Source: a virus
Taxonomy: Duplodnaviria; Heunggongvirae; Uroviricota; Caudoviricetes
Strand: one strand, 5' to 3'
Length of the DNA: 64,000 nt
Virus record (IMG/VR): IMGVR_UViG_3300033495_000700
Below, one piece after another: positions 30,583 to 59,452 of the stretch. Positions within the stretch are counted from its first letter, which is position 1, and every line of letters begins with the position of its first letter. The notes beneath the pieces were generated by a model. That model did not search any database and was not told the origin of the DNA. It saw nothing but the letters and a program-made list of their open reading frames with translations. The translations under genes and the position numbers were made by a program.

Positions 30583-31569
30583 TCATTCAAACGAAAATAA
30601 GCTAGTAAATGTATTTGCTGTGTTTGTACTTGATTGCAAGTCCCAGGACAGCACACCCAATAGATTGTCAATCTTTTGGTCCACCACAGTGGCTTCCATG
30701 TTAGCATCATCAAACGGCAGTTCTTTAAACCAGGCTGGCAAATGATGCTCGTCTGTGGGATACCCAATACTGGTCCACCCTAGAGCATTGCTCTTGAGTT
30801 TGCATACAATGGTTTTCATACCATCCACAATCTGCATGGAGTAATTGTCTGAATTCATGCGTCGCAATGTGTTCCAGTTCAATGCAGCTCGAACATGTCC
30901 GGGCATGTTGGACTTGCCATTTTTTTCTTCTAAATTGCCATACTTGGTCAAGTTGTTCACACGCTTGGGTGAGCCTTTTTCCCAGCCCGGGCGTTCGGTA
31001 AATTTGTATTTGAATTCTCTGATACATTCCACAATTTCTTCTCTCTGTGTTCCTGTTAGTACCTTATTTAGAAGATCGCTAAGGAACTCTTGAATAACCA
31101 CCGGAGTATCACTGCGTTTTAGATCCAGACCCATGGCCTTTACCTTGCCCGGTCGGCCATTTACATCCACACGCTTGTTTTCTTTGTCAATGTACAGCAC
31201 AGCATAACGCTTCTTGGTAATAAACAAACCGGTACGTGCTACAATTTCTCGACCACCACGAATCACAGATCCCATGTCTCGTGGACAATGAAATGCCTGT
31301 TCCATGAATCCAGGAAAAGAATCATTCACTTGTTCGGCTATGGAGTTGTACAATGCAATACAAGTTTCTGCAGACCACTCCATTCTACCATCTTCAACTT
31401 CAGCTTGAACCATGGGCCACGCTGAAAAGTAACACGAATCTGTGTTATGTACTAAAATATCATTTGCAAAGAAGAACGGATCTTGTTTGTCAATGCTTAT
31501 ATCATACACATAGTCGTCAATTTCGCCAAGGCATTCGACGCTCTTTACTGTTGTTCTTTCAATATCCAC
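30583..31569 (-). CDS. 43: DNA polymerase (family B) C-terminal fragment, preceded by the C-terminal split-intein half (IntC)
   Basis: GTG start right after a TAA. Begins VDIERTTVKSVECLGEIDDYVYDISIDKQDPFFFANDILVHN|TDSCYF. The IntC resembles Npu DnaE IntC (VYDIGVERDHNFALKNGFIASN). The extein then supplies the TDS of motif C and the thumb domain. Confidence 0.8.
   Translation of the reverse strand: MDIERTTVKSVECLGEIDDYVYDISIDKQDPFFFANDILVHNTDSCYFSAWPMVQAEVEDGRMEWSAETCIALYNSIAEQVNDSFPGFMEQAFHCPRDMGSVIRGGREIVARTGLFITKKRYAVLYIDKENKRVDVNGRPGKVKAMGLDLKRSDTPVVIQEFLSDLLNKVLTGTQREEIVECIREFKYKFTERPGWEKGSPKRVNNLTKYGNLEEKNGKSNMPGHVRAALNWNTLRRMNSDNYSMQIVDGMKTIVCKLKSNALGWTSIGYPTDEHHLPAWFKELPFDDANMEATVVDQKIDNLLGVLSWDLQSSTNTANTFTSLFSFE
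31444..31569 (-). other. split intein C-terminal half (IntC, 42 aa) ending HN, with +1 Thr
   Basis: ...YVYDISIDKQDPFFFANDILVHN followed by TDS. Confidence 0.75.
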
Positions 31570-31767
31570 TGGATTACTTTCTTAATTATTTCATGCTTAT
31601 TTGCTTTGAACTCGGATTCCAATATTACCAACGTCTTGAATCCAAGGTCCTGAACAGTCTGTAATTTTAGCATATCTCGATGCCTGATTTCAGCCGCAGT
31701 TTTACCTCGCATGATTGCAGAATCCGCATATACTGCTGGGTTAGCATGCCAGTAATCACCGTTAAAT

Positions 31768-32295
31768 TCATGTAGATAGGCAAATTATCAAATCATTTGG
31801 CAGGATATCAACAGGCTTAACTTCAATCAGGAATCCGTCACGATCTACCATTACGCTGTGATCTTCTGTCACTGTAACCGACTTATCATTATGCAATGTT
31901 ATTTTGTACAGTTTCTTTTTAGTTTTATGTCGCATAACATAAGAAATCCTACTCAAAACTGGCGCATCGTCGAACGCATTAAAGCCGACTACTTTAGCAA
32001 ACGACTGAACGCCGTATTCTTTATCACCATTACGTTCGTGTTGCTGGCACTGATTATATAACTCTGCAATTGTGATCTGTTCCGAATCGGTACGAATCAG
32101 TGTATCTCCGGTTACACTGTCGCCATATATGATACTTTTACCACTGTGATCATACTCGCCTGTGATGCATTCATTCACATATGCATCCATGTGCTTGGCA
32201 ATACTGCGACCCACCAAGGTTGTTGACTGTCCAATACGCTTGTCAAAGAATCTGCAGCCGGGATTCAAGATGGCACCATACACATTTATGTTCAG
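31768..32295 (-). CDS. 43: DNA polymerase (family B) middle fragment (motif B to YGD) fused to the N-terminal split-intein half (IntN)
   Basis: (L)NINVYGAILNPGCRFFDKRIGQSTT...IIYGD then SVTGDTLIRTD...TVTEDHSVMVDRDGFLIEVKPVDILPNDLIICLST*. The extein aligns to T4 gp43 INSLYGALGNVWFRYYD...LYGD. The intein carries blocks A and B (TxxH). Confidence 0.8.
   Translation of the reverse strand: MNINVYGAILNPGCRFFDKRIGQSTTLVGRSIAKHMDAYVNECITGEYDHSGKSIIYGDSVTGDTLIRTDSEQITIAELYNQCQQHERNGDKEYGVQSFAKVVGFNAFDDAPVLSRISYVMRHKTKKKLYKITLHNDKSVTVTEDHSVMVDRDGFLIEVKPVDILPNDLIICLST
31771..32118 (-). other. split intein N-terminal half (IntN, ~116 aa, Ser1)
   Basis: It begins immediately after YGD and is followed by a stop and then a 198-nt spacer containing several in-frame stops. 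Confidence 0.7.
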
Positions 32296-33742
32296 CTAAC
32301 TTCGCTAAAGTTAGTTCGTTTAGATTTACTAAACCGCCTTATATTTCTATAAGGATCAGACTATATCACCATCCAATTATTGGATGCCCCCCGTTTCGAT
32401 TCGCTTGAATCTACGTCTTTCGACTAGTCGTTGAACCTTCATATTGCTATGCTTGGCTGCTGATTGTCTTCAACTTAATGGTCAGAGTTTCCAGCAATTA
32501 GAGGAGTTATTCAACTATTGTTACCAATAGAGGTCGCAGTATCTTTACGAATTTAAATTAATTTTCTTAACCAATTGGCGCTTATCCCAAAACACTATCT
32601 GTTTTTTGACTTCTTCTTGATTTTTGTGAAATATTTTATTGTCGGAAATAACAAGATCATTTCTTGCACAAAACTCCTTTAACTCAGCAGCAGTGCCTTT
32701 TTCTAGCAATGTATTGAGATCGTTAATATTCATCTATTCCTCTCTTGTTGAAAATTTGTCGGTTGTGCTCGTTTTGTACTTCTTTAGTCTCGAAAATAAT
32801 CTCCGGGGACCAATTGTCTGATGAAATTCTTACGATTTGAATTCCTTCTTCTAAGCATATCTGATGCTTACTGATATCATTTTTTATCGATGATTCTTTT
32901 CGATGCCAATATTCTCCATCAACTTCTACTAATAATAGCATGTCTGACAAGTAAAAGTCAAATTTTTTCTCCCTAACGGGATATTGAGTGACGTATCTAA
33001 TATTATTTTTGTTTAAAAATTGTTCAAATTGTATTTCTAAACTTGTAGTTTTTTTATTTGGGAATACTAATTTGTTTTCTTTTAAATATTCTTTTCTCCG
33101 AATACTCAAGTTGAGTCGATATTTTTCAAATTCGATCAAGTCATCTTTACGTCTTCTCCACGCCTGTTGTTGATTTAATGTTTTTTGTTGTTTTACATCT
33201 GGCAGTAAGACAAGTTTTTTACCTTTTTTTGCAATAGAAAGATTTCTTTTAGTTTCGTCAGTGTGTGTTACTCCAGGCTTCCCTATTCTGGATTCGTGAT
33301 AACACTTTTGGCATTGCATGCCGTTTAAAAAATTCCCCAAGTTCACTGTATAAGTCCCATGGTGTAAACATTTTACTTGTATTTGATCAGTTCTCGTTAA
33401 CACTTTATTTGGAAGAGCAACAATAGAATAATTGTTAGTTTCTGCTTGATATACTTCTTCTAAAGATATAATATTGTTAGTATTAATATGATTCCTACAT
33501 CTAACGTTATCTACATTGTCTCGAAATCTTTTGGTAATCGTTACTGTTTTGCTACAAATTTCGCACACAGGTATTGGATCACTCCTTAGGTATAGTTGTA
33601 TGGCTCCTGATAAATCAGAAATATTTTCTTTACCTCCGTAGTACTCTATTAATCGTTTAAACTGTCGGGGATACTTTTTCTTAAAATCATTAACAAAATT
33701 CATAATATTTCCTTTATATTATTTATCCTGTTACTTTTCAGA
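32296..33742 (-). mobile_element. 1.45-kb insertion in polB motif B; putative HEG-containing group I intron (a precise split gene is the alternative)
   Basis: Exon 1 ends ...SISQKN and exon 2 begins (L)NINVYG, together recreating the KxxxNSxYG region. The 3' part contains GACTA ... 70 nt ... TAGTC (a P7-like pair), a ccttataGAAAtataagg GNRA hairpin, two further hairpins and a terminal ...ttaG before the exon. A TAG stop sits just inside. Confidence 0.5.
32723..33703 (-). CDS. homing endonuclease with Vsr/DUF559-type (EVDG...H) nuclease domain
   Basis: C-terminal FDFYLSDMLLLVEVDGEYWHRKES...DISKHQICLEEGIQIVRI. The N-terminus is Cys-rich. It starts 40 nt after the stop of polB exon 1 with an AAAGGAAA RBS. 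Confidence 0.65.
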   Translation of the reverse strand: MNFVNDFKKKYPRQFKRLIEYYGGKENISDLSGAIQLYLRSDPIPVCEICSKTVTITKRFRDNVDNVRCRNHINTNNIISLEEVYQAETNNYSIVALPNKVLTRTDQIQVKCLHHGTYTVNLGNFLNGMQCQKCYHESRIGKPGVTHTDETKRNLSIAKKGKKLVLLPDVKQQKTLNQQQAWRRRKDDLIEFEKYRLNLSIRRKEYLKENKLVFPNKKTTSLEIQFEQFLNKNNIRYVTQYPVREKKFDFYLSDMLLLVEVDGEYWHRKESSIKNDISKHQICLEEGIQIVRISSDNWSPEIIFETKEVQNEHNRQIFNKRGIDEY

Positions 33743-35362
33743 TTAATTTTTTTGACTAATGGATAGTCTGTCAGGTATTGTGATACCGCTTGACAAGTCG
33801 TTCCATAGGTTTTTAGTTTTCTGCATGTCTAGACGTTCACTATACCAGCGTTTGAGCAAGCCTGGGATTACACCTTCTTTTTCGTAGGTGAATATGGTAC
33901 CATTGGCACTGAGGATCCATGGTCGATTAGAGTCAAACAGCATCTTCCAAATTTCAGCAGCTGAGTGAACAGTTTCCTCGCCATCCTGCCAGTCTATGGT
34001 GATCTCTGTGCCACGTTGCTGTTCCATCACAGCAGTGTATTCTAAGCTGGCAAACAATCCTTCCCATGCAGCAGCAAAGCTATCTCCGCCAGCTATTTTG
34101 TCTTGGATTAGCCGGTCAGTCAGTGTGGGTCTGAGTTGGCCGACAATGGTTTCTGGACCCATGTTAAGGGCCCGAATAGCACTGGGATAGAGCGAGTTGA
34201 TGTCGATGCTACCAATCCAGTCGTGGATCCCTTTTTTGGGATAAGCAACATAGGCACCTGCGGCTTGCGTGTCATCATCTGTGAGTCTTTCTTTACGGTT
34301 AGGAACTACCATACCACGTTCGTGAGCTTCAATAATAATTGCTTGCTCAGTCACAGCCACTGCACCCATTGTGGTCGGCAACAGCACGGTATTTTCATGT
34401 GCCAGGGTATTGGCCAAGCTCAAGAATTTAAGTTTCTTGTCCAGCTTGCCGATCAACATTGTGTCCTGGCGATTGTAATCAATAAAGATCTTGAAGTTCT
34501 GGTTGTACAACTGATCCAGTGTGCCTTCAAATGCAGTCTTACGACCAATTTCTTCGTATTCACCAATGGCGTCTAAGGCATAGCTGTGACGTTCTTCATA
34601 AGTGTATTTGCGATACAGTTGCATATAGTCCATATGCACTCGACCTACCAAGTCATAGGTTTGATTCTCTGCACCAAATCGTTCAAACATACGTGGCTTG
34701 GGAAACTGATTCCATAAGCACATACGTCTAGTGTCATCTTTGCTGAGAACTCTGGTGATTCGATTCACAGTGTAGGGAATGTCGTAACCTTCCGAGTTCC
34801 ATCCAGTGAGAATGTCTGCATCTTCAATAAGATCCAGAAATGTGTTCAACATGTCTGCTTCTTTTTCAAACATAAAGCAGTTGTCAAACTCTGCTGCAAT
34901 CTCTTTGGCAGTTTCCATGCTCATATGACGTGGAGGTACAGCCAGCGTCACAATTTGATCCAGCCAATCCATGTACACAGAGATAGCAGTGATTGGGTTG
35001 AACGGATCTGTCACAGGTGAGAAACCACGTTTGGGATCAAAGTCTACTTCAATGTCATAGAATGCTGTGTGCAGTTGAGGGCCGTCTTTGCCTTTGTAGT
35101 TTTCCTCTAAACAACGAAAGATAGGGTTAATATCACTTTCGTAGATTTTCTTGCTGGAGTGCATACGCACTTCCTTGCGAAACTCTTTGTTGTTGCGTGA
35201 GGAAAATCTACTCACTGGCGTGTCGTAGATGCTACGAAACTTGCCTTTGGGGTCGTCGTAGTAAAGAACGTAGTTGGCTGGATACTCTTGGTATACCCGT
35301 CGGCCATCTCGGCGTTCAACCACGTGAATTCGATCATGTGCTCGATCATATAAACAGTCCAC
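33743..35362 (-). CDS. 43: DNA polymerase (family B, T4 gp43-like) N-terminal fragment: 3'-5' exonuclease plus palm motif A
   Basis: FYDIEVD (Exo I), GWNSEGYDIPY (Exo II), YNRQDT (Exo III), SIDINSLYPSAI (motif A). Ends ...SISQKN*. Confidence 0.9.
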   Translation of the reverse strand: MDCLYDRAHDRIHVVERRDGRRVYQEYPANYVLYYDDPKGKFRSIYDTPVSRFSSRNNKEFRKEVRMHSSKKIYESDINPIFRCLEENYKGKDGPQLHTAFYDIEVDFDPKRGFSPVTDPFNPITAISVYMDWLDQIVTLAVPPRHMSMETAKEIAAEFDNCFMFEKEADMLNTFLDLIEDADILTGWNSEGYDIPYTVNRITRVLSKDDTRRMCLWNQFPKPRMFERFGAENQTYDLVGRVHMDYMQLYRKYTYEERHSYALDAIGEYEEIGRKTAFEGTLDQLYNQNFKIFIDYNRQDTMLIGKLDKKLKFLSLANTLAHENTVLLPTTMGAVAVTEQAIIIEAHERGMVVPNRKERLTDDDTQAAGAYVAYPKKGIHDWIGSIDINSLYPSAIRALNMGPETIVGQLRPTLTDRLIQDKIAGGDSFAAAWEGLFASLEYTAVMEQQRGTEITIDWQDGEETVHSAAEIWKMLFDSNRPWILSANGTIFTYEKEGVIPGLLKRWYSERLDMQKTKNLWNDLSSGITIPDRLSISQKN

Positions 35363-35419: not shown

Positions 35420-35710
35420 TCAATTAAGTATCATCCTTAGTAGTCCAATCGAATCAATTGATACTAGCAATATATAATTGGCAAGCATCCCAAAGCTGCG
35501 CCTAGTGTAGCTAGCCCAAGCGTACATAATACAGCCAAAGATCCAAATAGGATATAGCACAATAAGAGGAGGGATAGGTACAGTGAGGGCCATAGTGATT
35601 GAACATCCGACACTAATTGCCCAAGCCGCAATTTCCACAATAAAACGAACAGGTGAACTGGTGTAGTCATCGTGTATCCATCTGAAAATATCTTTAAATG
35701 CAGGGATCAA
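35420..35710 (-). CDS. small membrane protein
   Basis: 96 aa with at least two hydrophobic helices. Confidence 0.4.
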   Translation of the reverse strand: MIPAFKDIFRWIHDDYTSSPVRFIVEIAAWAISVGCSITMALTVPIPPLIVLYPIWIFGCIMYAWASYTRRSFGMLANYILLVSIDSIGLLRMILN

Positions 35711-35970
35711 AGAGTTCGACCCACAGTTTCCAAAATAGTTTCCAGCAATTCGTGATCTTGTTTGGCTTTACCAAACTCAGCTTTGTGTGCCAGTTTGATG
35801 GCTTTTTTCAGCACACTGGGTTTGATTTCCAATTCTTCAGCAATGGCCTTGATGGTATCATTGAGTCCGCCAGTGAGTGTTTCGATCTCCTGTGTGACCT
35901 GCATACCTTCCTGAATAATCTGAATCAGTTTGAGTTTTTGATCGCCGTTGAATGTTTTTTGATTGTTCAT
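35707..35970 (-). CDS. hypothetical protein
   Basis: 87-aa ORF with a promoter upstream. Confidence 0.45.
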   Translation of the reverse strand: MNNQKTFNGDQKLKLIQIIQEGMQVTQEIETLTGGLNDTIKAIAEELEIKPSVLKKAIKLAHKAEFGKAKQDHELLETILETVGRTL

Positions 35971-36035: not shown

Positions 36036-39000
36036 TCATTGGCCGTTTAGCATTTGTGCTATCAATGCTTGGCGTTTCACACGGCTTTCGCTCATGGTAT
36101 TGGATCCAGTGTTGGGTTTTTTTGGTTGCTCGGCTTGTGGCACATTTTTGTAAACACGTTTGACAGGATCGTATACAGTTTTAAGTGGGCCCATGCCGGC
36201 TAGCTTTTTGACTCTGGACACCATGTCTTGATAGTCGGCGCCGTAGTCGGCTTCTTTTTCTCGAGGCTTGCCTTCCGCCATGTCTCGATTGATACTCTCA
36301 CCACCACCACCATCCCCGCTGCCACCAGGCTCGCCACTACCATAATAACCATAGCCTGGAAAGAAATATCTACCCAAGGATCTTGAAGTTTTTTTCTTTT
36401 TTCTTCTTGAACCCTCCGCCACACCTTTTTTATTCAACGCATCAATCGCGGCTTTTTTATGTTCGGGCGATGCTGTACTCATTGCAATATCTTTAATCAT
36501 CTTGGCAGTGCCAACCATGTCATCCGTGGGTTCAAAGTTTCCTAACCTCTTGTCATATTCTTTACGCTTGGCTGCAACTTGTTTGGCGTGAGCACTGGCC
36601 TCATTTATATCATTGAAATAATGACCAATGGCTGCATCTTCTGGGTCCACTGCAATCAGTCTATATGGAGCAATATTCCAACCACGGCCGTCTTTGTCTT
36701 CTATACGCACTCTGCGATCGTCGGGCTGACCACGCATGATAAACACTTCGCCGGAACTGTCCTGGCTGTCACGGACATAATCACCAGACTGAAGATTCAT
36801 GTATTCGTCGCGTGTACTTTCATCATCGTAACCGTCATTGCCTTCCGCCACACCTTGCTCTTTAACTTTCTTTCCTGTGTGTCTAGGAACATCACGCACT
36901 AGACTGTGTTTGCCATCATGGTGCCATCCTGGAAAATATTTGCCCGCTGACTGGAAAAAACGCTGATATATTGCTTCTTGTCTTTCTCCTGCACCCTGCA
37001 TGATAATTTCATCAATCTCTGTGTTGTATTCAGTGATGAATTTACGAACAGCATTGATTACAGTAGAATAGATTAAGAATTGGTTTTTATTTTTAGCAGT
37101 TAAATCAGTATTAATTTCATCGCCAAAACTATAGTCATCTTGTTCTTCTCTTACACCAAATGATACATTCACTGCGTTCCAGTTTTGTTTTTTACCAAAA
37201 GCCGGAGCACCTTTTACAGTGAAGTTTATTAAGTATGTGTCTTTACCAGACTTAAACTTCATAACTTTGTATGTAACTTGTTTACGGTCATTAGTGTTTA
37301 CAAAATCTTTTGGTTCTTTAACTTTGAGACTTGTGTTTGCTAATTCTTCTAAAGAGCCTTCCGCCACACCTTGCTCTCTAACCGGACCACCCCAACGAGC
37401 ATACAATCCATGCTGGGGTCCACCATCTTCAGGATGACGAGCACTGTAAATAGAAATGCCTTTTTGTATGGATTGCAATTCATTTTGATCAGCGTTGGCA
37501 CCCACTGGGAAACTTACATACACAAAGTCTGATTTTTTACCAATCTCTTGACCACCTGCCTTCAATAACAAACCGATTAGTCTTGCGGCGCTGTCGTCAT
37601 AGATTTCACGGCGATTGTTTCTCAGTGCCCATTCATCGCTAAACACAGATGTGAAGCCATTGATTGATACACCTGGCACCTGTGACAGTCTAAGCCATGA
37701 ACTACGAGCCTGTGGAGTTTGAGTTTCATCTGCCACAATGGTCATGCCTAACAATTTCATTGCTACACCGTAGAGATTTTGTCCCAGGCCTGTGCCGCGA
37801 TATTCATTATCAAGTCCAACGTTGGCAACTTGATAGCTGTTTTTGATAGGGAACCACGGTACCGAACGCAATGACAGGAAGCCTGCTTTTCTTAGTCCAT
37901 CATCAGGATGTTTTACATCAAATAGTTCAATGATGTAGTCAGCACCAGTCAAGAAAGAGCCTGCACGCCCAGCTTCACCGGCGGTGTAACCAAAACGCTG
38001 ACTGCCTGGCAGCATCTTGATCTTTGACAAAGTTTCTTTGCCGTAATTCTGACTTTTGGTGCTTAGTCCTTCTTTATCACCCGGGGTTCGTTGTATTTCT
38101 TGTATTTTTTCTTTGGTCTGATCCTGTGCGTCACTTTGTTGTTCACGCTTGTGCAATTCTTTACGTATCAATGCTTTGAATCTTGCTTCATTGCGATGTA
38201 AGACGCCTGGTCGTAACATTATTTTCAAGTGGTCGGTGTCGTAGTTGCTATAATCCGCCCCTCGAGTTGGTAGTTGATCAACAGAGCCTTCTGTCATACC
38301 TTGCTGTCTACGCTGTTTGCGAATAACAGCAATGGCCTGCAATACTGTTTTCTTAGTTAGTTTGCCTTCGCCTGCCATCAAGCGAATATCCTGCATAGTG
38401 ATACCGTCTTCAGTTGGAATCTTGATCTTTGCACCAGCTGACACAACTGGCTTTTTGTTATATTCTTTTTCGTATGCCTGTTGCTGCAACCAAGCATCTC
38501 TAGCAGCCGGACCATATTCGTCATCGTTTCTAGAGCCTTCCGCCACACCTTGCTTGTTCAACGCATCAATTGCGACTTTTTTATGTTCCGGAGAAGCATC
38601 GCTCATTGCAATATCTTTAATTAGTTTTGCAACACCAAACATTTGATCCGCTGGTTCAAAGTTGCCCAACCTCTTATCATATTCTTTACGGTTGGCAGCA
38701 ACTTCTTTGGCATGGGCTGATCGGGGTTCATTACTGCCGCCCGCCCAACCATACGCAGTGCGAAATTTCTTTACTTCTTCTAAATTAAAATAATGACCAA
38801 TGGCTGCATCGTCTGGATCAACCGCGACCAGCCTATATGGTGCAATATTCCAGCCTCGTCCATCTTTATCTTCTATTCTTACTCGACGATCGTCGGGCTG
38901 GCCACGCATGATAAACACTTCGCCGGAACTGTCTTGAGTATCACGGACATAATCGCCTGATTGGAGATTCATATATTCGTCGCGTGTACTTTCAGCATCG

Positions 39001-39821
39001 TACCCGTCATTGCCTTCCACCACACCTTCCCTTACTCCCTTTTCTTTACGCTTTGGTACTGGCTTTCCTGCCAAATCTTTATCGCCGATGTAGACACCAT
39101 TCTTGTCATGACTTGCTGGATTCTTTTCAAACGGCTTACCTTTGCGAGCTTCCCGATCTGCTTCTGCTTTCTTAACAGCATCAGCCCAGTAGCCTTCCGT
39201 TACATCTTGAGCAGCAGCTACAGCACTACGGCTTTCTGCCACACCTTCCTTACCTGAATTAGCGTGTGCCTTGGCAGCTTTTTCACTTGTAAAGATTTTA
39301 CGTGAACCAGCCTGATTAGTTGCAACATATGAGCCGTCTTTGGTTTTCTTTACCTCGCCTCTGTGATTACCACGTGCGTCCCGTGCGCTATCTGTAGTTG
39401 GATCCAAGCCTTCCGCCACACCTTGCTTATACAATGCTAGTCGCTTCTTCTCGTGAGTAATACTTTGTTGGATAGCATCTTGATCAGCATTGGGGCGATC
39501 TAGTTGTGCTTGTAATCTTTCTATAGCGGCTCGGATAGCATCTACATCCTTTTGATCACGCTTGCTCAAGCCCTCCGCTATACCTTGCTGCATATCTCGC
39601 TTGACTGCACGAGCAACATCTTGTGCCAGAGCACTGGGATTGCTATCTCCACCGTAGTTCAACACATCTACGATTGCTGCATGGATTGTACGTTGGTCGG
39701 CTCGGCGTGCCAAGTTGGGATATATCATTTCAAATTCAGCATATACTTGGTTTGCTAAATCTTCTTCATCGTAGCCTTCGACGATTGTGGGTTTGCGATT
39801 GAAAAGGTTGTCAATGATCAT
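36036..39821 (-). CDS. 1261-aa modular protein; candidate polyprotein of head-internal/ejected proteins with repeated QGVAEG linkers and a GNAT-like segment
   Basis: At least 9 copies of (Q/K)G(V/I)AEG. An internal ~170-aa duplication. YRGTGLGQNLYGVAMKLLG is GNAT motif-A-like. Gly-rich C-terminal region. Confidence 0.55.
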   Translation of the reverse strand: MIIDNLFNRKPTIVEGYDEEDLANQVYAEFEMIYPNLARRADQRTIHAAIVDVLNYGGDSNPSALAQDVARAVKRDMQQGIAEGLSKRDQKDVDAIRAAIERLQAQLDRPNADQDAIQQSITHEKKRLALYKQGVAEGLDPTTDSARDARGNHRGEVKKTKDGSYVATNQAGSRKIFTSEKAAKAHANSGKEGVAESRSAVAAAQDVTEGYWADAVKKAEADREARKGKPFEKNPASHDKNGVYIGDKDLAGKPVPKRKEKGVREGVVEGNDGYDAESTRDEYMNLQSGDYVRDTQDSSGEVFIMRGQPDDRRVRIEDKDGRGWNIAPYRLVAVDPDDAAIGHYFNLEEVKKFRTAYGWAGGSNEPRSAHAKEVAANRKEYDKRLGNFEPADQMFGVAKLIKDIAMSDASPEHKKVAIDALNKQGVAEGSRNDDEYGPAARDAWLQQQAYEKEYNKKPVVSAGAKIKIPTEDGITMQDIRLMAGEGKLTKKTVLQAIAVIRKQRRQQGMTEGSVDQLPTRGADYSNYDTDHLKIMLRPGVLHRNEARFKALIRKELHKREQQSDAQDQTKEKIQEIQRTPGDKEGLSTKSQNYGKETLSKIKMLPGSQRFGYTAGEAGRAGSFLTGADYIIELFDVKHPDDGLRKAGFLSLRSVPWFPIKNSYQVANVGLDNEYRGTGLGQNLYGVAMKLLGMTIVADETQTPQARSSWLRLSQVPGVSINGFTSVFSDEWALRNNRREIYDDSAARLIGLLLKAGGQEIGKKSDFVYVSFPVGANADQNELQSIQKGISIYSARHPEDGGPQHGLYARWGGPVREQGVAEGSLEELANTSLKVKEPKDFVNTNDRKQVTYKVMKFKSGKDTYLINFTVKGAPAFGKKQNWNAVNVSFGVREEQDDYSFGDEINTDLTAKNKNQFLIYSTVINAVRKFITEYNTEIDEIIMQGAGERQEAIYQRFFQSAGKYFPGWHHDGKHSLVRDVPRHTGKKVKEQGVAEGNDGYDDESTRDEYMNLQSGDYVRDSQDSSGEVFIMRGQPDDRRVRIEDKDGRGWNIAPYRLIAVDPEDAAIGHYFNDINEASAHAKQVAAKRKEYDKRLGNFEPTDDMVGTAKMIKDIAMSTASPEHKKAAIDALNKKGVAEGSRRKKKKTSRSLGRYFFPGYGYYGSGEPGGSGDGGGGESINRDMAEGKPREKEADYGADYQDMVSRVKKLAGMGPLKTVYDPVKRVYKNVPQAEQPKKPNTGSNTMSESRVKRQALIAQMLNGQ
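36415..36935 (-). repeat. intragenic duplication, copy 2 (~85-90% nucleotide identity to 38530..39050)
   Basis: Encodes GNDGYDDESTRDEYMNLQSGDYVRDSQDSSGEVFIMRGQPDDRRVRIEDKDGRGWNIAPYRLIAVDPEDAAIGHYFN...SAHAKQVAAKRKEYDKRLGNFEP...ASPEHKKAAIDALNKKGVAEGS. Confidence 0.7.
38530..39050 (-). repeat. intragenic duplication, copy 1
   Basis: Encodes GNDGYDAESTRDEYMNLQSGDYVRDTQDSSGEVFIMRGQPDDRRVRIEDKDGRGWNIAPYRLVAVDPDDAAIGHYFN...AHAKEVAANRKEYDKRLGNFEP...ASPEHKKVAIDALNKQGVAEGS. Confidence 0.7.
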
Positions 39822-39822: not shown

Positions 39823-40488
39823 TTATGCTTCTTCTAAGTAGTCTTGGCTGGGATCTTGCGATAATGAACGACGATGTGCTTGAAACATCTCTACTGCTAT
39901 TTCAGCTTCATCTAAGTCTCTGAACCGGCTGGGCAATATACGGCCTTGATAGTGAATTTCAAACCCACGACGTTGATCTCCGTAACACTCTAGACATGAG
40001 CCATCTTCTAGTGTGATTGTTTTCACAGGGCCAGATTCGCCTACACTCACTGGGCTCATCATGGCAGTACCTGACATCATTGGCTCTTGAGATTCTTCTT
40101 GTGCGTTTTCTTCGTCATATTGGTCTTGATCGTCGGCCTTGGCAGGATTCTTGTCTTGAATTTCTTGCTTGGCTTTTTGTTCTAGTTTGTCTAGATATTG
40201 TGTAAGATCCTTCTTGACCTTGCTTAACATGTCCTCGTCAATCGCAGCCATGCGTTCTGCTAATGCACCACCAACCGGCTGAACCGAATCACCAACCATG
40301 TTTTTACCCAGGGGTTTCTTTTGATTGTTGCTGCCTAGCACTGGTGATACGTTTTCAGGCTTGAACAATGCAGGCAGTTGCGGTACTGACTGTTGTTGTT
40401 TGTTTAGCCCTTTTTTTACCGAGACAGGAGTAATGTCTGACTCAATCACGGCCAGGCGTTTTAGTATGTTTGCAATGTCATTGCTCAT
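39823..40488 (-). CDS. hypothetical acidic protein (scaffold-like composition)
   Basis: 221 aa with an E/D/Q-rich middle. Confidence 0.4.
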   Translation of the reverse strand: MSNDIANILKRLAVIESDITPVSVKKGLNKQQQSVPQLPALFKPENVSPVLGSNNQKKPLGKNMVGDSVQPVGGALAERMAAIDEDMLSKVKKDLTQYLDKLEQKAKQEIQDKNPAKADDQDQYDEENAQEESQEPMMSGTAMMSPVSVGESGPVKTITLEDGSCLECYGDQRRGFEIHYQGRILPSRFRDLDEAEIAVEMFQAHRRSLSQDPSQDYLEEA

Positions 40489-40925
40489 GCTCGTTCAACT
40501 TTCAAATAACTATTCAGTTGCCAACGATACTTGCCATGAGCACTGAGTCGTTCTGCAATAAAGTTAGCAATACCTTGTTCATTTTCTTCGTTGGCTACTG
40601 CAAAGCAAACATCCAGTAAATCTAACATTTGATTGTTGTTGGCGTACAATTCTTCCAACATCAATTGAGCACGTGGGATTTTGATTTGTCCGGCAATCTC
40701 TGTGAGTTCACTGTAACGCTCTAGACTTCCCGGAGCATATTCTCCCAGGTAGCGAATGTATTCTGCTGTGGGATCTAATGCAGAATACGCATCTTCGTAG
40801 ATTTTTTGAAAGAATTTGTGCAGTTGTCCAAAGTCCGACCCCTCCACATTCCAGTGAAACTGGTGTGCTTTTAAGTAATAGGCAAAATTAGTTGCCAGGA
40901 GTGTTTTTAAATTGTCCGCGAGCAT
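40485..40925 (-). CDS. hypothetical protein
   Basis: 146-aa ORF. Confidence 0.4.
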   Translation of the reverse strand: MLADNLKTLLATNFAYYLKAHQFHWNVEGSDFGQLHKFFQKIYEDAYSALDPTAEYIRYLGEYAPGSLERYSELTEIAGQIKIPRAQLMLEELYANNNQMLDLLDVCFAVANEENEQGIANFIAERLSAHGKYRWQLNSYLKVERA

Positions 40926-41100
40926 GCTTGTTCCTTTTGTATTCCTTAGGCGTATTAGGCGTTAGGTCCGTTGTGTATTTACCACTCAGCATAGAACCGC
41001 CTTGTCTTGTTTGCATACCCATTGGTTGAACTAACACTGCCATAGATCCAGTGCTGGAGCTGCCCACACTTGCATCTTCCATTATTTCATGTACTTTCAT
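40888..41100 (-). CDS. hypothetical protein
   Basis: 70-aa ORF. Confidence 0.35.
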   Translation of the reverse strand: MKVHEIMEDASVGSSSTGSMAVLVQPMGMQTRQGGSMLSGKYTTDLTPNTPKEYKRNKHARGQFKNTPGN

Positions 41101-41449: not shown

Positions 41450-42094
41450 TTATGCCGTTTGTGTGGCAGGAGCCAATGCTGCGGCTAGGGCCATGCGTCT
41501 TTGTCTATCTGCGCCTGAACTTCGTTCATAGAATTGATCTACAATGGCAGCAGCATCGTTGGAGGTTTTTGCACTTTTCAATCTTCGCCCGGCGTTTGCT
41601 TCTGTGTTGTTCAATTCCCACTGCACAAACTCCAATTGGTCTTGCAAGCTAGACCCTTGTAATGGTTTACGCATCTCTTTAGCAAAATCTTGTTGTCGTG
41701 ATCCGCGCCACTGTGCAATACCATATGCTTGCTCGCCGGGATTTAGTGCAGCAGGATTTAAATTTGGTGTTGATTCTGCTTGTAGGTTGGCCACTAGACC
41801 GGCAGCTTGTTCAGGCGACCATCCTTGTTGCATAAAGTAGTTTAGGGCAATTTTTGCATTGCCCGATGCGCCACCACCTGCGTTATTGGATGGTCTAGAC
41901 GCACCAGATCCAGGCAAACGTATACGAGATCCTGGCTGAATATCATTAGCATTAGCCAACTGTGGATTTTGCCACATGATGCCATCTACGGTGGTATCGT
42001 AGGACTTGGCTATGCCGGGCAAGGAATCTCCAGATCTCACGGTATAGATATTACTAGAGCTGATGGCTTCGGACAAGAACTCAAATAACTTCAT
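41450..42094 (-). CDS. LysM-domain peptidoglycan hydrolase (phage tail/ejected lysozyme-like), CTS-like N-terminus
   Basis: MKLFEFLSE N-terminus. LysM segment YTVRSGDSLPGIAKSYDTTVDGIMWQNP. C-terminal segment GLVANLQAESTPNLNPAALNPGEQAYGIAQW. Confidence 0.55.
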   Translation of the reverse strand: MKLFEFLSEAISSSNIYTVRSGDSLPGIAKSYDTTVDGIMWQNPQLANANDIQPGSRIRLPGSGASRPSNNAGGGASGNAKIALNYFMQQGWSPEQAAGLVANLQAESTPNLNPAALNPGEQAYGIAQWRGSRQQDFAKEMRKPLQGSSLQDQLEFVQWELNNTEANAGRRLKSAKTSNDAAAIVDQFYERSSGADRQRRMALAAALAPATQTA

Positions 42095-42095
42095 G

Positions 42096-43253
42096 TTATT
42101 CTTTTAGCATGTTTGATAAACGACGCATCAGATCTACACTTTCTGCAAATGTTCCAGGTGCGTTTCTGCTTTCAGCCGCTGGTGTATCTGATATTGTACC
42201 TGCTCCCGGGAACGGTGTCTTGCCAGGTAATGGTTTTGCAGGAGTAGCTGCCGCTCCTTTGCCAGCCAACGCAGCCTTTTCGGCTTGTAAGGTAGCAATG
42301 TACCTTGCATTTGGCGGCAATTTGGGATCTGAAGTTTTACTAAATCTAGCAATTTCTCGGTCATATTCTTGCGGCGTTTTGTATCTAGGCGGTTTTCCTG
42401 CAGGTAATGAAGCCTGGCCTGCCGCTGCTGTTGGAAAAAATTGCTTCATTGCTGCTTGTGTAGCCGGGCCCATAATACCGTCTGATTTAATCTTTGCACC
42501 GGCTGCAATTAGCTCATCCTGTAATGCTTTTATTTTAGGATCTGATCCTGCTTTAGGCGCTGCGGCACCTGTCGGCGCGGTCTGTGTACCAGCTTGTAGT
42601 CGTGCATCTGTTGGATTAGAGGCTGGTGCTGGTGCTGTTGCTGCCGGTGCTACCGGAGCACCATCTCTTTCAGCATCAGCCGCCGCTGAATTTGGTGCCG
42701 CCGCTGGTGCCGCTGGTGCTACCGGAGCACCATCTCTTTCAGCATCAGCCGCCGCTGAATTTGGTGCCGCCGCTATAGGGCCTGGGTTTAATGCTGTAGG
42801 CGGTGTCACTGGTGAAGTTGTAGCCGCCGCCGCCGACTGTTCTGCCGATGTCGTTGATGCCTGCGCACCTGCTCCCAGTTCAGCTTCAGCTCGTCGAACG
42901 GCTGCTATATTGGCAGCTAGTTGTGCCTGTGCGCTGGTAGGCGGTGGATTTACAGGCTGTCCAGCTCCAGCTTGGACAGGATTACGCGAACCATCTTGAA
43001 CAGGATTACCCGAACCATCTGTCACCGTTAAAGGCTTAATCGGTGCGCCTGCAGGTAAAGTTCCACCAGCTGCTGTTTTTCCTTTATTAGGTAATCTGTT
43101 AAGAATAAACTGATCACTCAGATCGGGTTGTTGGCCGTCTTTGGTTAGTGCTTGTTGATCCGTTGGTGTTAATGCTGCAAATCTAGCAGCGTCTGCGCCA
43201 GTGTATGGATTGGCAATTGGCGCAGCTTCTCTTAAAAATTCTATTGATCTCAT
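42096..43253 (-). CDS. Ala/Pro-rich protein with PG_binding_1 domain, CTS-like N-terminus
   Basis: Start taken at MRSIEFLREAAP (ATG 43253, AAAGGAACA RBS). Contains KIKALQDELIAAGAKIKSDGIMGPATQAAMKQF and a tandem 23-aa repeat. Confidence 0.55.
   Translation of the reverse strand: MRSIEFLREAAPIANPYTGADAARFAALTPTDQQALTKDGQQPDLSDQFILNRLPNKGKTAAGGTLPAGAPIKPLTVTDGSGNPVQDGSRNPVQAGAGQPVNPPPTSAQAQLAANIAAVRRAEAELGAGAQASTTSAEQSAAAATTSPVTPPTALNPGPIAAAPNSAAADAERDGAPVAPAAPAAAPNSAAADAERDGAPVAPAATAPAPASNPTDARLQAGTQTAPTGAAAPKAGSDPKIKALQDELIAAGAKIKSDGIMGPATQAAMKQFFPTAAAGQASLPAGKPPRYKTPQEYDREIARFSKTSDPKLPPNARYIATLQAEKAALAGKGAAATPAKPLPGKTPFPGAGTISDTPAAESRNAPGTFAESVDLMRRLSNMLKE
42649..42774 (-). repeat. tandem direct repeat (2 x ~57 nt, period 69 nt) inside the CDS
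   Basis: gctaccggagcaccatctctttcagcatcagccgccgctgaatttggtgccgccgct occurs twice. Confidence 0.7.
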
Positions 43254-43290
43254 GTGATGTTCCTTTATGGATGATCTACGTTTATTTATT

Positions 43291-43491
43291 CTATTTGCCC
43301 TGTGCTGCCAATCTTGCGCCATTGTTAAAACTGTTGCTGTGACTGGCAGCATTCTTGTTGCCACGAGCTTTTGACCACGCATACCCAGCTCTATGGCCAG
43401 AACAATCTTTGGTGCAAGGACTGCCTAGGAACGTAAGTTCATCTAGTGCTTGCTGCGGCTGTTTATTACGAGTAAATTCTCTTGCTCTCAT
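43291..43491 (-). CDS. small basic protein with CTS-like N-terminus (MRAREF)
   Basis: 66 aa. Confidence 0.45.
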   Translation of the reverse strand: MRAREFTRNKQPQQALDELTFLGSPCTKDCSGHRAGYAWSKARGNKNAASHSNSFNNGARLAAQGK

Positions 43492-43967
43492 TTGGCATCC
43501 CCAAAGATTGGCCCACTAACATACTGACCATTTTGACTCAATACACCATTGCGTAGATTCTTGATGATACCGTCGGTGATGTCTCTACGGCGAAAGTGTG
43601 GCAAAAAGATATGAACCTCTACTGGTCGATCACCTTGCTCGCCTAGTATAGCATACATTCTGTGACGTCCGTCATGATCACGTACCTTGGCTTCCAAACT
43701 AAAGTCATCATTTTCCCAAGATTCGGGCACAACCACAGTCAAGAATGGCGCACCAAACCCTGGATCGTTGATCTGTCGGCGTAGATTTTGTATGGTTTCT
43801 TTTTCGTCAGCAGCATCAGCGTCCAAGGGCAAGCTGAGTTTGAGAAATGTGCTGGGTCGCATGACTGTGCGTATACCAAAGTAATCTACATCAGCATTGT
43901 GCGGAACAGCACCCAGACCTTGTTGGTTGTCTATCTTTAGTTCAGTTATGAATTCGCTTGATCTCAT
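43488..43967 (-). CDS. hypothetical protein with CTS-like N-terminus (MRSSEFITE)
   Basis: 159 aa with start/stop overlaps. Confidence 0.5.
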   Translation of the reverse strand: MRSSEFITELKIDNQQGLGAVPHNADVDYFGIRTVMRPSTFLKLSLPLDADAADEKETIQNLRRQINDPGFGAPFLTVVVPESWENDDFSLEAKVRDHDGRHRMYAILGEQGDRPVEVHIFLPHFRRRDITDGIIKNLRNGVLSQNGQYVSGPIFGDAK

Positions 43968-44167
43968 GTGTCTATCCTATGCACATTGGTCACTATGCTG
44001 TCTTTGCCGTATTGAGCTTGCAGCAATAATCGTGCCATGGCAGGTGATTTGGCAAATATAGCCACGTCTATGCTGGTGGTATAAGAGGGATTTTTCACAC
44101 GCACAGACGCACTGTACACATGAAATCCAGGCAGTAGTTCTTCACAAAGGAATTCTGTTGCTCTCAT
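43964..44167 (-). CDS. small protein with CTS-like N-terminus (MRATEFLCEE)
   Basis: Start at ATG 44167 overlaps the TGA of the 44167..45840 gene. Confidence 0.45.
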   Translation of the reverse strand: MRATEFLCEELLPGFHVYSASVRVKNPSYTTSIDVAIFAKSPAMARLLLQAQYGKDSIVTNVHRIDT

Positions 44168-45840
44168 CAGCAGTTCCACTTTCTCAACGCTAATGCTTTG
44201 CGAGTGGGTTTGCCATTGGGTTTTTTCATTGGACCCTTGACTCCGCCCATTCTGGCACAGAATGATTTACGACGTTTGGCTGCTTTTGATCCTGGTTTGA
44301 GTTTGCTGGGCTTGGTGGTCACTGCCATCTGTAATTTTGAGCCAGGATTCTCTCTGCGATAGCTAGCAACACCTTTGGCATTGAGCCCGCCCTTTTTACT
44401 CTTGCCTGCGCTTCTACGCCAAGCTGCTGTTTCAAACAGTTCGTGATCGTCTACTGATTCAAAGTCTTCCCAAATTACATCAGCATCAACACCGTGTGCC
44501 TCAGCCAGTTCCATTACCATTTCTTCAATAAGATCAAACTGTTGATCAGAGTCAAGATCTTCTGTGATTGACTCCTTGGGCACACAGTCAGGGACCATTC
44601 TCCCTCCTTTGTTTTTCATACCAATTTGTTTGTGTGTGTCCCAGCAGGCTTCTTCTAAATCTATACTCTCGTCAGTTTTTTTGGTAGCATTTATATATTT
44701 TCTATACACTGCCGCTGCCTCAGATTTTCCTGCAGCCTTGGCACGTTGTTCCATTGCCACAGCGGCTTGGATCTTGTGTGCGTGACTACGACCACTATTA
44801 CGAATCTTTAACACACTGGCTCTGGCATCTCCTTCTGTGGCAAATTTCAAACCAGTAATAGTGCCGTTGGGATTTTCATCTGTGTACAAGTCGCTATGCT
44901 TTTTACTATTGGCAGATTGTCCTGCTTTTCTTGGGATACGTTTGTTTTCCGTTACATTTGGCTTGAAGGACTGTGAGTTGTCTTGAACCTTGGACTTGCG
45001 CTGTTTGCGATAGTAAGTATTAGCAGGGTCAGTGTCATGACTTTGATCTGGCCACCATTCAATTGTGAATATCTTTCCATTTTCAAAATCATCATGCATA
45101 CTCATGATTCTTTGTTCGTACTCGTCTCGACTAGGAGATGTTCGTCCTGCAACCACATCCATTACAAAGTTCAAAGTAACAGCATTGGCAGCAAGACTAG
45201 CGCATCTGGCACCAACCTCATTCTTAAGATGATCAATCAGTATGCTTTCACTGCAATCTGCCAACGCAGAACTCAGTCTATGAGGCACCCGTAGATCAAT
45301 GTAACTGTAGCAATAGTCATAGTGCGGAGACGGGCTGATATGCATCACATACTCGTCTTTTATTTCGATGCGTTTGAATCCATCAAGATCATGCCACATG
45401 GCAATATCCTTTGTGGCATCATGCGGATCACCAAAAGTCTTGGTCAAATGCCAAGCATACTGTGCCGGTACACGATTGCGCCATGAGCGCAACAGGTCTA
45501 AAATGTTAGGCTGGCTTTTTTCAGCATCAGTTGCGTCTTCGTTGGTATTCTTCACACAGTTAGGATATGTTTTGCCAAACATCTTTTTATTACCTTCTTT
45601 GTGATAGCCTTTCCAACATGCTTCATCTAAATTTTTATGATCCCTGTGTGTTTGACACATACCACAATCAGGGCATGTCATTTCTTCGTCAATACTTTCA
45701 TTGCGTTTTCTCTTGCCAGCACAATGAGCCTTTTGACTGAATCCCTTGGGGTGAGAGCAGTTGATACTACTTTTGTATTTTTGGCTCCACTTTTCATCCA
45801 AGTGACGCATATTTTCTGTGATAAATTCATGGCTTTTCAT
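44167..45840 (-). CDS. 557-aa basic protein with CTS-like N-terminus (MKSHEFITE) and repeated Cys modules
   Basis: EACWKGYHKEGNKKMFGKTYPNCV and EACWDTHKQIGMKNKGGRMVPDCV modules. K/R-rich. Confidence 0.5.
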   Translation of the reverse strand: MKSHEFITENMRHLDEKWSQKYKSSINCSHPKGFSQKAHCAGKRKRNESIDEEMTCPDCGMCQTHRDHKNLDEACWKGYHKEGNKKMFGKTYPNCVKNTNEDATDAEKSQPNILDLLRSWRNRVPAQYAWHLTKTFGDPHDATKDIAMWHDLDGFKRIEIKDEYVMHISPSPHYDYCYSYIDLRVPHRLSSALADCSESILIDHLKNEVGARCASLAANAVTLNFVMDVVAGRTSPSRDEYEQRIMSMHDDFENGKIFTIEWWPDQSHDTDPANTYYRKQRKSKVQDNSQSFKPNVTENKRIPRKAGQSANSKKHSDLYTDENPNGTITGLKFATEGDARASVLKIRNSGRSHAHKIQAAVAMEQRAKAAGKSEAAAVYRKYINATKKTDESIDLEEACWDTHKQIGMKNKGGRMVPDCVPKESITEDLDSDQQFDLIEEMVMELAEAHGVDADVIWEDFESVDDHELFETAAWRRSAGKSKKGGLNAKGVASYRRENPGSKLQMAVTTKPSKLKPGSKAAKRRKSFCARMGGVKGPMKKPNGKPTRKALALRKWNC

Positions 45841-46544
45841 TTGTTCACCTTGCTCATTGTGTTTTTTGTAGTCTTGCCCTGCACCGCAGTGGTGCGAGCA
45901 GGATCGGGTGCAGAATCAGTACTGGCTGCTGGTATATACTGATTGATTGATCTGCGAGTGAGATCACCCAACACACCATCCACATCCAGATTGGCACCAA
46001 ACTTGGTATTCAGCATGTGTTGCAGTCGCCGCACCAGGGCAGATGGTAGACCGTTGCTTTCGGTCACAGCACTTTCGCTCTTGTTGCCGTAGTTGGCAGC
46101 ACCTTTCTTACGACATTGCACCAGGCGGCCCGAAGCATAGGCTGAAGGCCATACTTTAGCCGACGCCTTGACCTTGTAGTAACAAGCATCTTTCTTTTCC
46201 GCAATCATGTGTATGGGATACATGGCTTGGCCACAATGCGGGCATGATTCATGATTTTCGTTGGTCTTTTTTTTGGTGGCCACATTGATAGCAGCACCCT
46301 GACGATTGGCATTGGGATCTTCGCGGCGTTTTCTTGATGCAGCTGACGCTCGTCCTTTTTTGCCCAGAGCATGAGCCTTGGCCTGCGGCAAACACTTGGG
46401 CTTGCCTTCTGATTCAGAGCCACGAGCACAATCACCTCGGATCTTGCCGTCGGGACCAAATCTCACCCATTTTTGTTTGAACCAGTCTCGTAGATTTTCT
46501 TCCAACTGCTGCTGGTGTTCTGTGATAAATTCATGCGATTTCAT
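45837..46544 (-). CDS. 235-aa basic protein with CTS-like N-terminus (MKSHEFITE) and Cys module
   Basis: CPHCGQAMYP...DACYYKVKASAKVWPSAYASGRLVQCRKKG. Confidence 0.5.
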   Translation of the reverse strand: MKSHEFITEHQQQLEENLRDWFKQKWVRFGPDGKIRGDCARGSESEGKPKCLPQAKAHALGKKGRASAASRKRREDPNANRQGAAINVATKKKTNENHESCPHCGQAMYPIHMIAEKKDACYYKVKASAKVWPSAYASGRLVQCRKKGAANYGNKSESAVTESNGLPSALVRRLQHMLNTKFGANLDVDGVLGDLTRRSINQYIPAASTDSAPDPARTTAVQGKTTKNTMSKVNK

Positions 46545-59339: not shown

Positions 59340-59452
59340 CTGAGTCTCCTATTAGGTAAAGTATCTACGTATGTATTATGCTGGGTGGATTGTGTTTGAA
59401 ATGTACTCGTCGGAAGTAATAAGCACTCGTCAAGTGCTTATTGAACATCTAG

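Follow-up and report, generated by a model that had tools for sequence, protein, structure and literature searches.

We describe a gene in a 64,000-nucleotide stretch of uncultured phage DNA (Caudoviricetes; IMG/VR record IMGVR_UViG_3300033495_000700, hereafter the window), a minus-strand open reading frame (ORF) at 36036..39821 that encodes 1261 amino acids (aa). The layout of its product is that of a short leader followed by about 14 cassettes, separated by a recurring joint that mostly reads (K/E)-Q-G-V-A-E-G. From the comparison of related contigs the joint is conserved as DNA and forms the border of recently exchanged cassettes, a property that was missing from the original prediction of a polyprotein cut by a prohead protease. 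The polyprotein reading is strengthened but unproven: we consider it somewhat more probable than the sum of its alternatives that the gene encodes a cargo polyprotein of a jumbo myovirus related to phage PA5oct, which would be cut by the head protease and whose joints would serve as crossover points.

The ORF contains six exact copies of G[VI]AEG (first G at aa 80, 134, 425, 818, 990 and 1133), compared with 0.008 expected per protein when the 1261-aa sequence is shuffled, which bears out the recurring (Q/K)G(V/I)AEG segment first noted in this ORF. The count of at least nine linkers given at that time is reached only if degenerate copies are included, of which there are five: GVAES (193), DVTEG (206), GVREGVVEG (262-270), GMTEG (508) and DMAEG (1180-1184). 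In a six-frame translation of the window GVAEG was confined to this ORF, in which the gaps between joints are uneven and range from 13 to about 310 aa. A protein identical to the ORF product (P0001) was found on two metagenome contigs. Joint repeats are shorter than usual assembly k-mers, and assembly chimerism at the repeats was ruled out by their shortness and the identical protein on two contigs. Among 50,697 GenBank phage records neither a DNA nor a protein match to the gene was found (megablast, tblastn), and no cultured phage in this collection has a homologue of the protein. For the whole protein Pfam gave nothing above threshold, with sub-threshold matches only, and PHROGs gave families of unknown function and one weak 'head protein' match (E 7.7e-4). 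The DNA polymerase (family B) encoded next to the gene shares 49 % identity with its counterpart in the Pseudomonas jumbo phage PA5oct and 45-47 % with those in Atu_ph07 and Phosso, and on the basis of these identities we regard the window as derived from an uncultured relative of these jumbo myoviruses.

For the family analysis the best 120 of 140 protein matches were taken as the homologue set. The search picks candidates by shared 5-residue words and so favours motif-bearing proteins, while its scores reflect module homology. The homologues (694-1921 aa) each cover 5-26 % of the query at 40-90 % identity and are chains of unrelated, reshuffled modules with the same joint segment between them. 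In their 113,455 residues we counted 492 G[VIM]AE motifs with the consensus K-[EK]-Q-G-V-A-E-[GA], spaced 49-241 aa apart (5th-95th percentile), and 15-19 % of protein-level homology ends fell within 5 aa of a joint, compared with 4.8 % at random. The module behind the leader of the 1261-aa protein (GYDEEDLANQVYAEFE...; GYDxE[ED]LANxVYAEFE...) comes after QGVAE↓G (the arrow marks the predicted cut) in P0006, P0007, P0010, P0021 and P0044, and TIVE↓G at the end of the leader therefore holds the place of a joint. P0012 and P0021, on contigs of 250 and 269 kb, occupy the same slot as our gene, between ClpB/DnaJ and Dps-like (ferritin-family)/polB genes; because the three share this position but carry different cassettes, the locus is hyperplastic. 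Judged by these comparisons it is a large family carried on metagenomic jumbo-phage contigs related to PA5oct, of which we found no published description. A literature search on the joint motif, or on the prohead protease together with jumbo-phage polyproteins, found nothing relevant, and polyproteins are mentioned neither in a 2026 jumbo-phage review nor in the PA5oct paper. The chance that GVAEG is part of a structural repeat (beta-helix, collagen-like or fibre), named at the outset as a possible refutation, is practically nil: the recurrence of the motif speaks for it and nothing more, while the spacing is irregular (13-310 aa in our protein, 49-241 aa in the family) and the modules are mutually unrelated save for one duplication, one of them modelling as a globular GNAT-like domain, and on these grounds we exclude it.

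Four joints of the 1261-aa ORF share the identical 18-mer CAAGGTGTGGCGGAAGGC, and Ala is encoded by GCG in seven of its eight joints, compared with 9 % of the Ala codons in the long ORFs of the window. The 18-mer matches more than 120 IMG/VR contigs, and in 596 Gb of bacterial genomes it was found in 56 stretches, nearly all with a single match. Many of these bacterial matches lie in actinomycete and other high-GC genomes, and they yielded no host assignment. To avoid ascertainment bias we ran a degenerate scan in which nothing but the amino acids E-Q-G-V-A-E-G was fixed, and which yielded 79 in-frame sites; 59 of them read exactly GGTGTGGCGGAA. Codon use in these sites was GGT 92 %, GTG 90 % and GCG 85 %, with GAG for the upstream Glu in 73 %, whereas the background in joint-bearing ORFs of the seed-selected loci was 45 %, 21 %, 7 % and about 20 %, respectively. 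The logo of 469 unique joints shows a block of about 17-20 nucleotides (nt), with information at background level beyond both edges, and the 14-mer core lies in one and the same frame of long ORFs in 289 of its 297 copies.

Regarding exchange, we examined DNA matches between different contigs (≥90 % identity, ≥120 nt) and obtained 298 match ends that were internal to both contigs. 48 % of these ends lay within 10 nt of a joint centre, compared with 1.0 % for random positions in the same loci. Cassettes of at least 150 nt with joints at both ends were found in 20 cases, 14 of which were inspected: they measure 164-414 nt with 91-100 % identity, whereas identity over the adjoining 80 nt on each side is at random level (0.09-0.36). 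An example is a joint-bounded segment of 199 nt that loci L021 and L153 have in common with 100 % identity. Because the ends of exchanged DNA sit at the joints, the joint has been the seam at which cassettes moved in frame, and the aligned contigs thus demonstrate cassette exchange at joints. Cassette turnover can explain why the joint codons are so uniform.

The same uniformity also suits a joint that is primarily a nucleic-acid signal, such as a recombinase or nuclease target, an RNA-processing or a ribosome-pausing site, with the peptide as a by-product. Synonymous positions are 88-93 % conserved with the rare GCG preferred, the GAG bias of the upstream Glu and the sharp block edges point the same way, and the joint includes Shine-Dalgarno-like AGGTG and an in-frame GTG. 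We nevertheless hold this explanation to be highly improbable. Third codon positions vary 2-50 times more than the Glu codon and the second position of Val, so that selection acts on the joint peptide, and borders that do not resemble the 18-mer (KIQE↓I, DINE↓A, TIVE↓G) stand in equivalent places. Moreover, the Shine-Dalgarno-like bases have no start codon within a workable distance, and no recombinase was consistently adjacent in the loci read. Internal initiation at the in-frame GTG was considered separately and rejected, as the Shine-Dalgarno-like bases are just 1 nt away.

The constraint on the peptide was determined from 584 in-frame 18-mers that differ from the consensus at no more than four bases. 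In these, the codon for Glu is nearly invariant (0.2-0.9 % mismatches at the first two bases), as is the second base of the Val codon (0.7 %), while Gly (P4) and Ala (P2) changed in about 5-7 % and P1' is most variable (G, A, D, E, V, S, N). At the level of sequence this substitution pattern matches the rule of the T4 head protease gp21, cleavage after Glu with a hydrophobic residue at P3, as seen in the N-terminal T4 sites L-T-E↓A (gp23), I-A-E↓A (gp22) and L-I-E↓A (gp67).

The features of the ORF, followed by one line of context outside it, are listed in the order of translation:

39777..39821, minus strand: N-terminal leader MIIDNLFNRKPTIVE↓G, aa 1-15, with TIVE↓G where a QGVAE↓G joint would stand
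39570..39587, minus strand: joint 1, QGIAEG, aa 79-84, CAAGGTATAGCGGAGGGC
39408..39425, minus strand: joint 2, QGVAEG, aa 133-138, exact consensus 18-mer CAAGGTGTGGCGGAAGGC
39192..39248, minus strand: double joint, EGVAES (aa 192-197), 13-aa spacer SRSAVAAAQDVTE and QDVTEG (aa 205-210)
39012..39029, minus strand: joint EGVVEG, aa 265-270, with GVREG just before it; start of duplicate copy 1
38538..39014, minus strand: duplicate copy 1, aa 270-428, with sub-cassette a (to ..HYFN), a 16-aa insert and sub-cassette b (SAHAKE...)
38535..38552, minus strand: joint QGVAEG, aa 424-429, exact 18-mer
38286..38303, minus strand: joint QGMTEG, aa 507-512, three mismatches to the 18-mer
38094..38108, minus strand: KIQE↓I, aa 572-576, a site other than GVAE at the N-border of the GNAT-like cassette
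37359..38096, minus strand: GNAT-like cassette, aa 576-821, motif A YRGTGLGQNLY
37356..37373, minus strand: joint QGVAEG, aa 817-822, exact 18-mer
36843..37358, minus strand: cassette, aa 822-993, weak DUF6934 match (E 0.0069, below the Pfam cut-off)
36840..36857, minus strand: joint QGVAEG, aa 989-994, exact 18-mer; start of duplicate copy 2
36414..36842, minus strand: duplicate copy 2, aa 994-1136, with DINE↓A between sub-cassettes a and b
36411..36428, minus strand: joint KGVAEG, aa 1132-1137
36273..36413, minus strand: Lys-rich and Gly-rich cassette, aa 1137-1183, ending in DMAE↓G
36039..36272, minus strand: C-terminal cassette, aa 1184-1261, with ..DMVSRVKKLAGMGPLKTVYDP.., common to P0010 and P0017
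41450..49650, minus strand, outside the ORF: at least eight genes with T4 capsid-targeting-like N-termini

The internal duplication (aa 271-429 and 995-1137) is real, with 79 % amino-acid identity, but its copies (DNA 36415-36935 and 38530-39050) are not near-identical as had been claimed: the DNA is 84 % identical over aligned columns and carries a 16-aa indel. Among the 76 codons at the start, 48 are the same in both copies, 24 show synonymous and 4 non-synonymous differences; because the differences are mostly synonymous, we take the duplication to be old and both copies to be under purifying selection. The duplicated unit itself consists of two cassettes. Of these, sub-cassette a was recovered in about 85 protein clusters (at 50 % identity); it can stand anywhere in proteins of 107-1570 aa, and also directly behind a leader in short proteins (MKIREILAE↓NSHDEY.., MRLREFAE↓STDQ..); its border with sub-cassette b is FNSVAE↓A in P0011 and FNSMAE↓A in P0005, compared with DINE↓A in copy 2. 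Other cassettes recur likewise. The spacer of the double joint (E↓SRSAVAAAQGITE↓A) is found again in the joint-bearing gene beside the capsid gene of locus L024, DUF6934 also matches a neighbouring 1753-aa ORF, and P0002 and P0003 have the Lys- and Gly-rich cassette in common with our protein, ending there in INRGVAE↓G. The C-terminus, described originally as Gly-rich, is not: the Gly-rich stretch (aa ~1155-1176) is internal to this cassette and one further cassette follows. The latter (..DMVSRVKKLAGMGPLKTVYDP..) is akin to the scaffold C-terminus ..IKRLAGL in L011 (790..1890) and L024 (5430..6518), and P0022 ends in ..ELRRLAGLK. Such a KRLAGL-like end might be a peptide that binds the shell or the core. 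The idea that the motif is a targeting signal in general was dropped, as it is present in just 4 of the 120 homologues.

The cassette at aa 576-821 is the only one in the protein with a recognisable catalytic fold; the other modules have no Pfam match. Searched alone, it yielded 37 clusters, mostly of stand-alone proteins of 235-248 aa, in which its N-border is always hydrophobic-x-E↓IQR, be it behind a leader, another domain or a cassette. Stand-alone forms start with MRIQE↓IQRT, MKIKDILAE↓IQRT or MRAQEFTSAINE↓IQRR, and fused forms read ..TKINE↓IQRR, ..MLPE↓IQRS, ..QVKE↓IIQRT and ..SDLQE↓IQRT (..DLQE↓IQRT in P0002 and P0003), similar to ..KEKIQE↓IQRT in our protein. At the other end the stand-alone forms stop at ..GLYARWGGK, where our protein runs on with ..ARWGGPVREQGVAEG, its next joint. 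Motif A (R/Q-x-x-G-x-G/A), on which the original assignment of a GNAT block was based, is present as RGTGLG. Weak matches to Acetyltransf_1 were found in 22 of 31 homologues of the block (best E 1.1e-4), while the block of the 1261-aa protein itself has no Pfam match at E≤1. Its AlphaFold model has a mean pLDDT of 83.8 with the first nine residues disordered, and the PDB matches to this model are all GNAT among the 50 best listed (E ~1e-4, probabilities 0.95-1.00), with low TM-scores of 0.2-0.43. We therefore keep it as a predicted GNAT-like module, supported only at the family level.

Leaders recur in related contigs, where many small complete ORFs read directly from leader to joint (MRATEFIIEGVAEG, MRINEILVEQGVAEG, MKTLREYINLIESAEQGVAEG, MKMHEIDENINQGVAEG and MNSKDFLHEGIAED), and the leader class of the 1261-aa protein (MIIDQLFTRPxFE, MIVENLFKPKPTVVE) is also present in homologues. 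Among ORFs of at least 150 aa, leader-like N-termini occur in 86 of 173 joint-bearing ORFs, compared with 157 of 1048 others (odds ratio 5.6, p 4e-22). The capsid-targeting sequence of T4 is MKTYQEFIAE↓A. Its residues 4 and 7 serve targeting, residues 8 and 10 processing (PMC9026906). In the window the genes at 41450..49650 start with MKLFEFLSE, MRSSEFITE, MKSHEFITE (twice), MRSNEFLIE, MRANEFLIE and MRANEFLNE, and the domains among them include LysM with lysozyme, DUF6321 and a small GNAT; their products are candidate packaged or injected proteins.

Two further elements were noted near these leaders. Directly upstream of the 1261-aa gene and overlapping its start (TAAT ATG) lies a gene for 221 aa (39823..40488, minus strand), which begins with MSNDIANILKRLAVIE↓S.. 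and has ..QQQSVPQLPALFKP.. in common with joint-bearing proteins of L034 and L080; it is probably of the same cargo class and part of the same operon. A second recurrent N-terminal element, E-[ST]-x-[ST]-[AS]-G-[SA]-[VI]-A-[ST]-V-x-x-P-[ML]-G (e.g. MKVHEIMEDASVGSSSTGSMAVLVQPMG), stands behind many leaders, in the window at 40888..41100 (minus strand) and in L003, L008, L015, L059, L111 and others. It is akin to the segment ENASAGSTVSGNIATLNRV at the N-terminus of the lineage's capsid protein and to AAGQTSGAVTQ of T4 gp23.

The leaders and stand-alone forms bear on the question whether the joints are cut at all. Exchange at the joints is what the data actually establish, and it would also suit an uncleaved 140-kDa multidomain 'polyvalent' effector in which the joints are flexible linkers and recombination seams. 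Polyvalent proteins are multidomain and sometimes packaged unprocessed (N4 virion RNA polymerase; Iyer et al. 2017), and the neighbouring 1753-aa ORF is multidomain and has no GVAE joints. However, a mere linker needs neither an invariant Glu nor a hydrophobic P3, the hydrophobic-x-Glu border is also found behind leaders in stand-alone forms, where there is nothing to link, and modules of 13-60 aa are unlikely as domains of one enzyme. We consider an uncleaved effector unlikely.

Regarding the protease, homologues of T4 gp21 (34-37 % identity) were found beside portal, scaffold and capsid genes in the IMG/VR loci L011, L024 (at 4794-5420) and L116. In L011 and L024 a joint-bearing gene lies downstream of the capsid gene, after a further gene that we read, from its sequence, as a putative GIY-YIG-type endonuclease. 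The capsid proteins of L024 and PA5oct share 65.6 % identity, and on this ground we assign these loci to the same lineage as the window. The prohead protease is also present in the PA5oct genome. In the 91 kb of PA5oct scanned for leaders, one leader-bearing small head protein detected in virions by mass spectrometry was found, gp150, which starts with MKINDIITE↓G.

If the cut were made instead by a host protease or a different peptidase of the phage, be it in the cytoplasm or once the protein has been injected, this would account for the absence of a head protease gene from the 64-kb window and for the position of the 1261-aa gene outside a head module. Iyer et al. propose self-processing of polyvalent proteins via their own metallopeptidase domains, and the neighbouring 1753-aa ORF contains a HEMTH (HExxH-like) string. 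The site pattern is nonetheless that of T4 gp21, the leaders are akin to the T4 capsid-targeting sequence, the gp21 homologues and the joint-bearing genes after the capsid gene occur in the same lineage, and a peptidase domain was not detected in the 1261-aa protein (Pfam, E≤1), so that another protease seems to us decidedly improbable.

Several observations weigh against a cargo polyprotein cut by the head protease. The 1261-aa gene sits among replication and auxiliary genes, outside any head module. Homologues of gp20, gp21, gp23 and gp17 were all sought and not found in the 64-kb window; the expected protease is known from the related contigs L011, L024 and L116 and from PA5oct. The capsid protein of related contigs has no GVAE and offers only a generic L-K-E↓N candidate site, and the leader of the 1261-aa protein (MIIDNLFNRKPTIVE↓G, 15 aa) is longer and less T4-like than its neighbours' MKSHEFITE and MRANEFLIE. 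In PA5oct, the closest cultured relative, the 131 kb examined held neither polyproteins nor an expansion of leader-bearing genes; the phage failed as a proxy with an experimental anchor, having fibre-like virion proteins upstream of polB instead. At orthologous joints synonymous sites were no more conserved than in the flanks, in a sample of 15 pairs only, and codon uniformity beyond what a protease site needs could reflect a function at the nucleic-acid level instead. Proteolytic cutting and capsid packaging of the 1261-aa protein are predictions from sequence. What stands of the original polyprotein with T4 gp21-type sites are the stand-alone modules bordered at joints, the leaders, the constraint on Glu and P3 and the gp21 homologues in related contigs; its cleavage and packaging remain conjectural. 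The uncleaved effector, the other protease and the nucleic-acid signal each fit fewer observations than the cargo polyprotein does.

The neighbourhood of the gene holds further features of note. The motif TATAAATA of T4 late promoters was absent near the 1261-aa gene. Between this gene and polB lies an 87-aa ORF (35707..35970, minus strand) whose product is 45 % identical to gp310 of PA5oct, a virion protein by mass spectrometry and of unknown function. The gene for the family-B polymerase (30583..35362, minus strand) is fragmented, as in PA5oct, with gp311 of PA5oct matching 35365-33794 and 32286-31777 and gp313 matching 31581-30589. Within the gap, where GC is low (0.354), lies a 326-aa ORF (32723..33703) with a domain of the restriction-endonuclease type (MTES_1575/Vsr). 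The 1753-aa ORF (49854..55115, minus strand) starts with MKFHDLDNYNLADAV and carries nucleotidyltransferase, Amidoligase_2, dCMP/cytidine deaminase and DUF6934 domains besides HEMTH, without GVAE joints; it resembles a classical polyvalent protein, located next to one of the joint type. A ClpB-like ATPase is encoded in two ORFs (58143..61021, minus strand), split by an apparent intein within Walker A of its second ATPase domain: ORF 59453..61021 closes with ..GPTGTGK followed by CLAHDQEVTV.. and then a stop, and ORF 58143..59339 runs from ..SNGIIHHN through TELAKLLSE.. into AAA_2 and ClpB_D2-small. The outer ClpB parts joined give GPTGTGKTELAK, and the splitting element could be a naturally split or a disrupted intein.

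In the mechanism that we propose, the gene product would consist of the leader MIIDNLFNRKPTIVE and about 14 cassettes, each a self-standing small protein or domain elsewhere, linked by hydrophobic-x-Glu sites that mostly take the extended form (K/E)-Q-G-V-A-E↓G. The polyprotein would enter the prohead in the manner of a T4 internal protein, cleavage behind each Glu by a head protease of the gp21 type (S77) would yield a set of small proteins, and these would be injected with the DNA. The joint DNA of 18-20 nt (RAG CAA GGT GTG GCG GAA GGC) would act as an in-frame crossover point, at which cassettes bounded by two joints may be exchanged, duplicated and re-ordered among genes and phages; exchange would keep the joint DNA uniform, and each phage's polyprotein would be a different assortment. 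We give an even chance to an in-frame cassette system of this kind, in which one element of 18-20 nt is both the code for a protease site and the point of recombination, so that cargos are traded and then released, like exon shuffling without introns. If true, large phages could build and quickly re-assort an arsenal of injected proteins, with one leader delivering many cargos and one short sequence securing both their release and their in-frame exchange. A rule of leader plus QGVAEG would then find hundreds of candidate injected proteins in metagenomes, for the most part without known function and plausible as anti-defence factors. It would also suggest a way, taken from nature, to load several proteins into phage capsids, and be a clear case of coding sequence constrained at synonymous sites through a role in recombination.

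The closest known systems each share a part of this arrangement. The T4 internal proteins IPI, IPII and IPIII likewise have a short leader ending in hydrophobic-x-Glu, followed by diverse, fast-evolving cargo, in a lineage with a gp21-type protease; once injected, their cargo counteracts host defences (PMC9026906, PMC3012670, PMC12373910). In T4, however, there is one cargo per gene and one site per protein, Ile-Ala-Glu, whereas here up to about 14 predicted cargos stand behind one leader with a repeated extended site, Val-Ala-Glu, and would be packaged. Ejection and inner-body proteins of phiKZ, 201phi2-1 and SPN3US also belong to jumbo phages, many of whose head-internal proteins are cut after Glu by the gp21-related gp175/gp245 (PMC7411985, PMC10052503). 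Several sites per protein sometimes occur, but in discarded propeptides and not between concatenated cargos, and neither a nucleotide-conserved joint nor cassette exchange is reported there. The PeSL promoter/stem-loop cassettes of T4-type genomes are similar in that short conserved DNA flanks variable hyperplastic genes and is proposed to provide crossover points (PMC2839356, PMC4122927). In contrast to the joint, which lies inside an ORF in a single frame and moves pieces of protein, PeSLs are intergenic and regulatory and move whole genes. The polyproteins of RNA viruses (potyvirus NIa and picornavirus 3C sites) also form one product with a recurring short protease site between functional proteins, but they belong to another realm, use another protease and have a fixed gene order, and their sites are not known to exchange cassettes. 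Polyvalent proteins of phages and conjugative elements, with 2-15 effector domains and proposed to enter the host with the DNA (Iyer, Burroughs, Anand, de Souza and Aravind 2017), resemble our family as large mosaic proteins, GNAT included, with extensive domain shuffling. For these, processing by their own metallopeptidase domains was proposed; a repeated joint is not described and the word 'linker' is absent from the paper. Peptidase, MuF and ParB-like domains, a hallmark of polyvalent proteins, were not detected in the 1261-aa protein at E≤1 (Pfam), and its modules differ from theirs in being small, mostly of unknown fold and separated by one conserved peptide and DNA joint. The most economical reading, a variant that we did not find described, is a combination of the two: effectors assembled like polyvalent proteins and targeted to the capsid like the internal proteins of T4.

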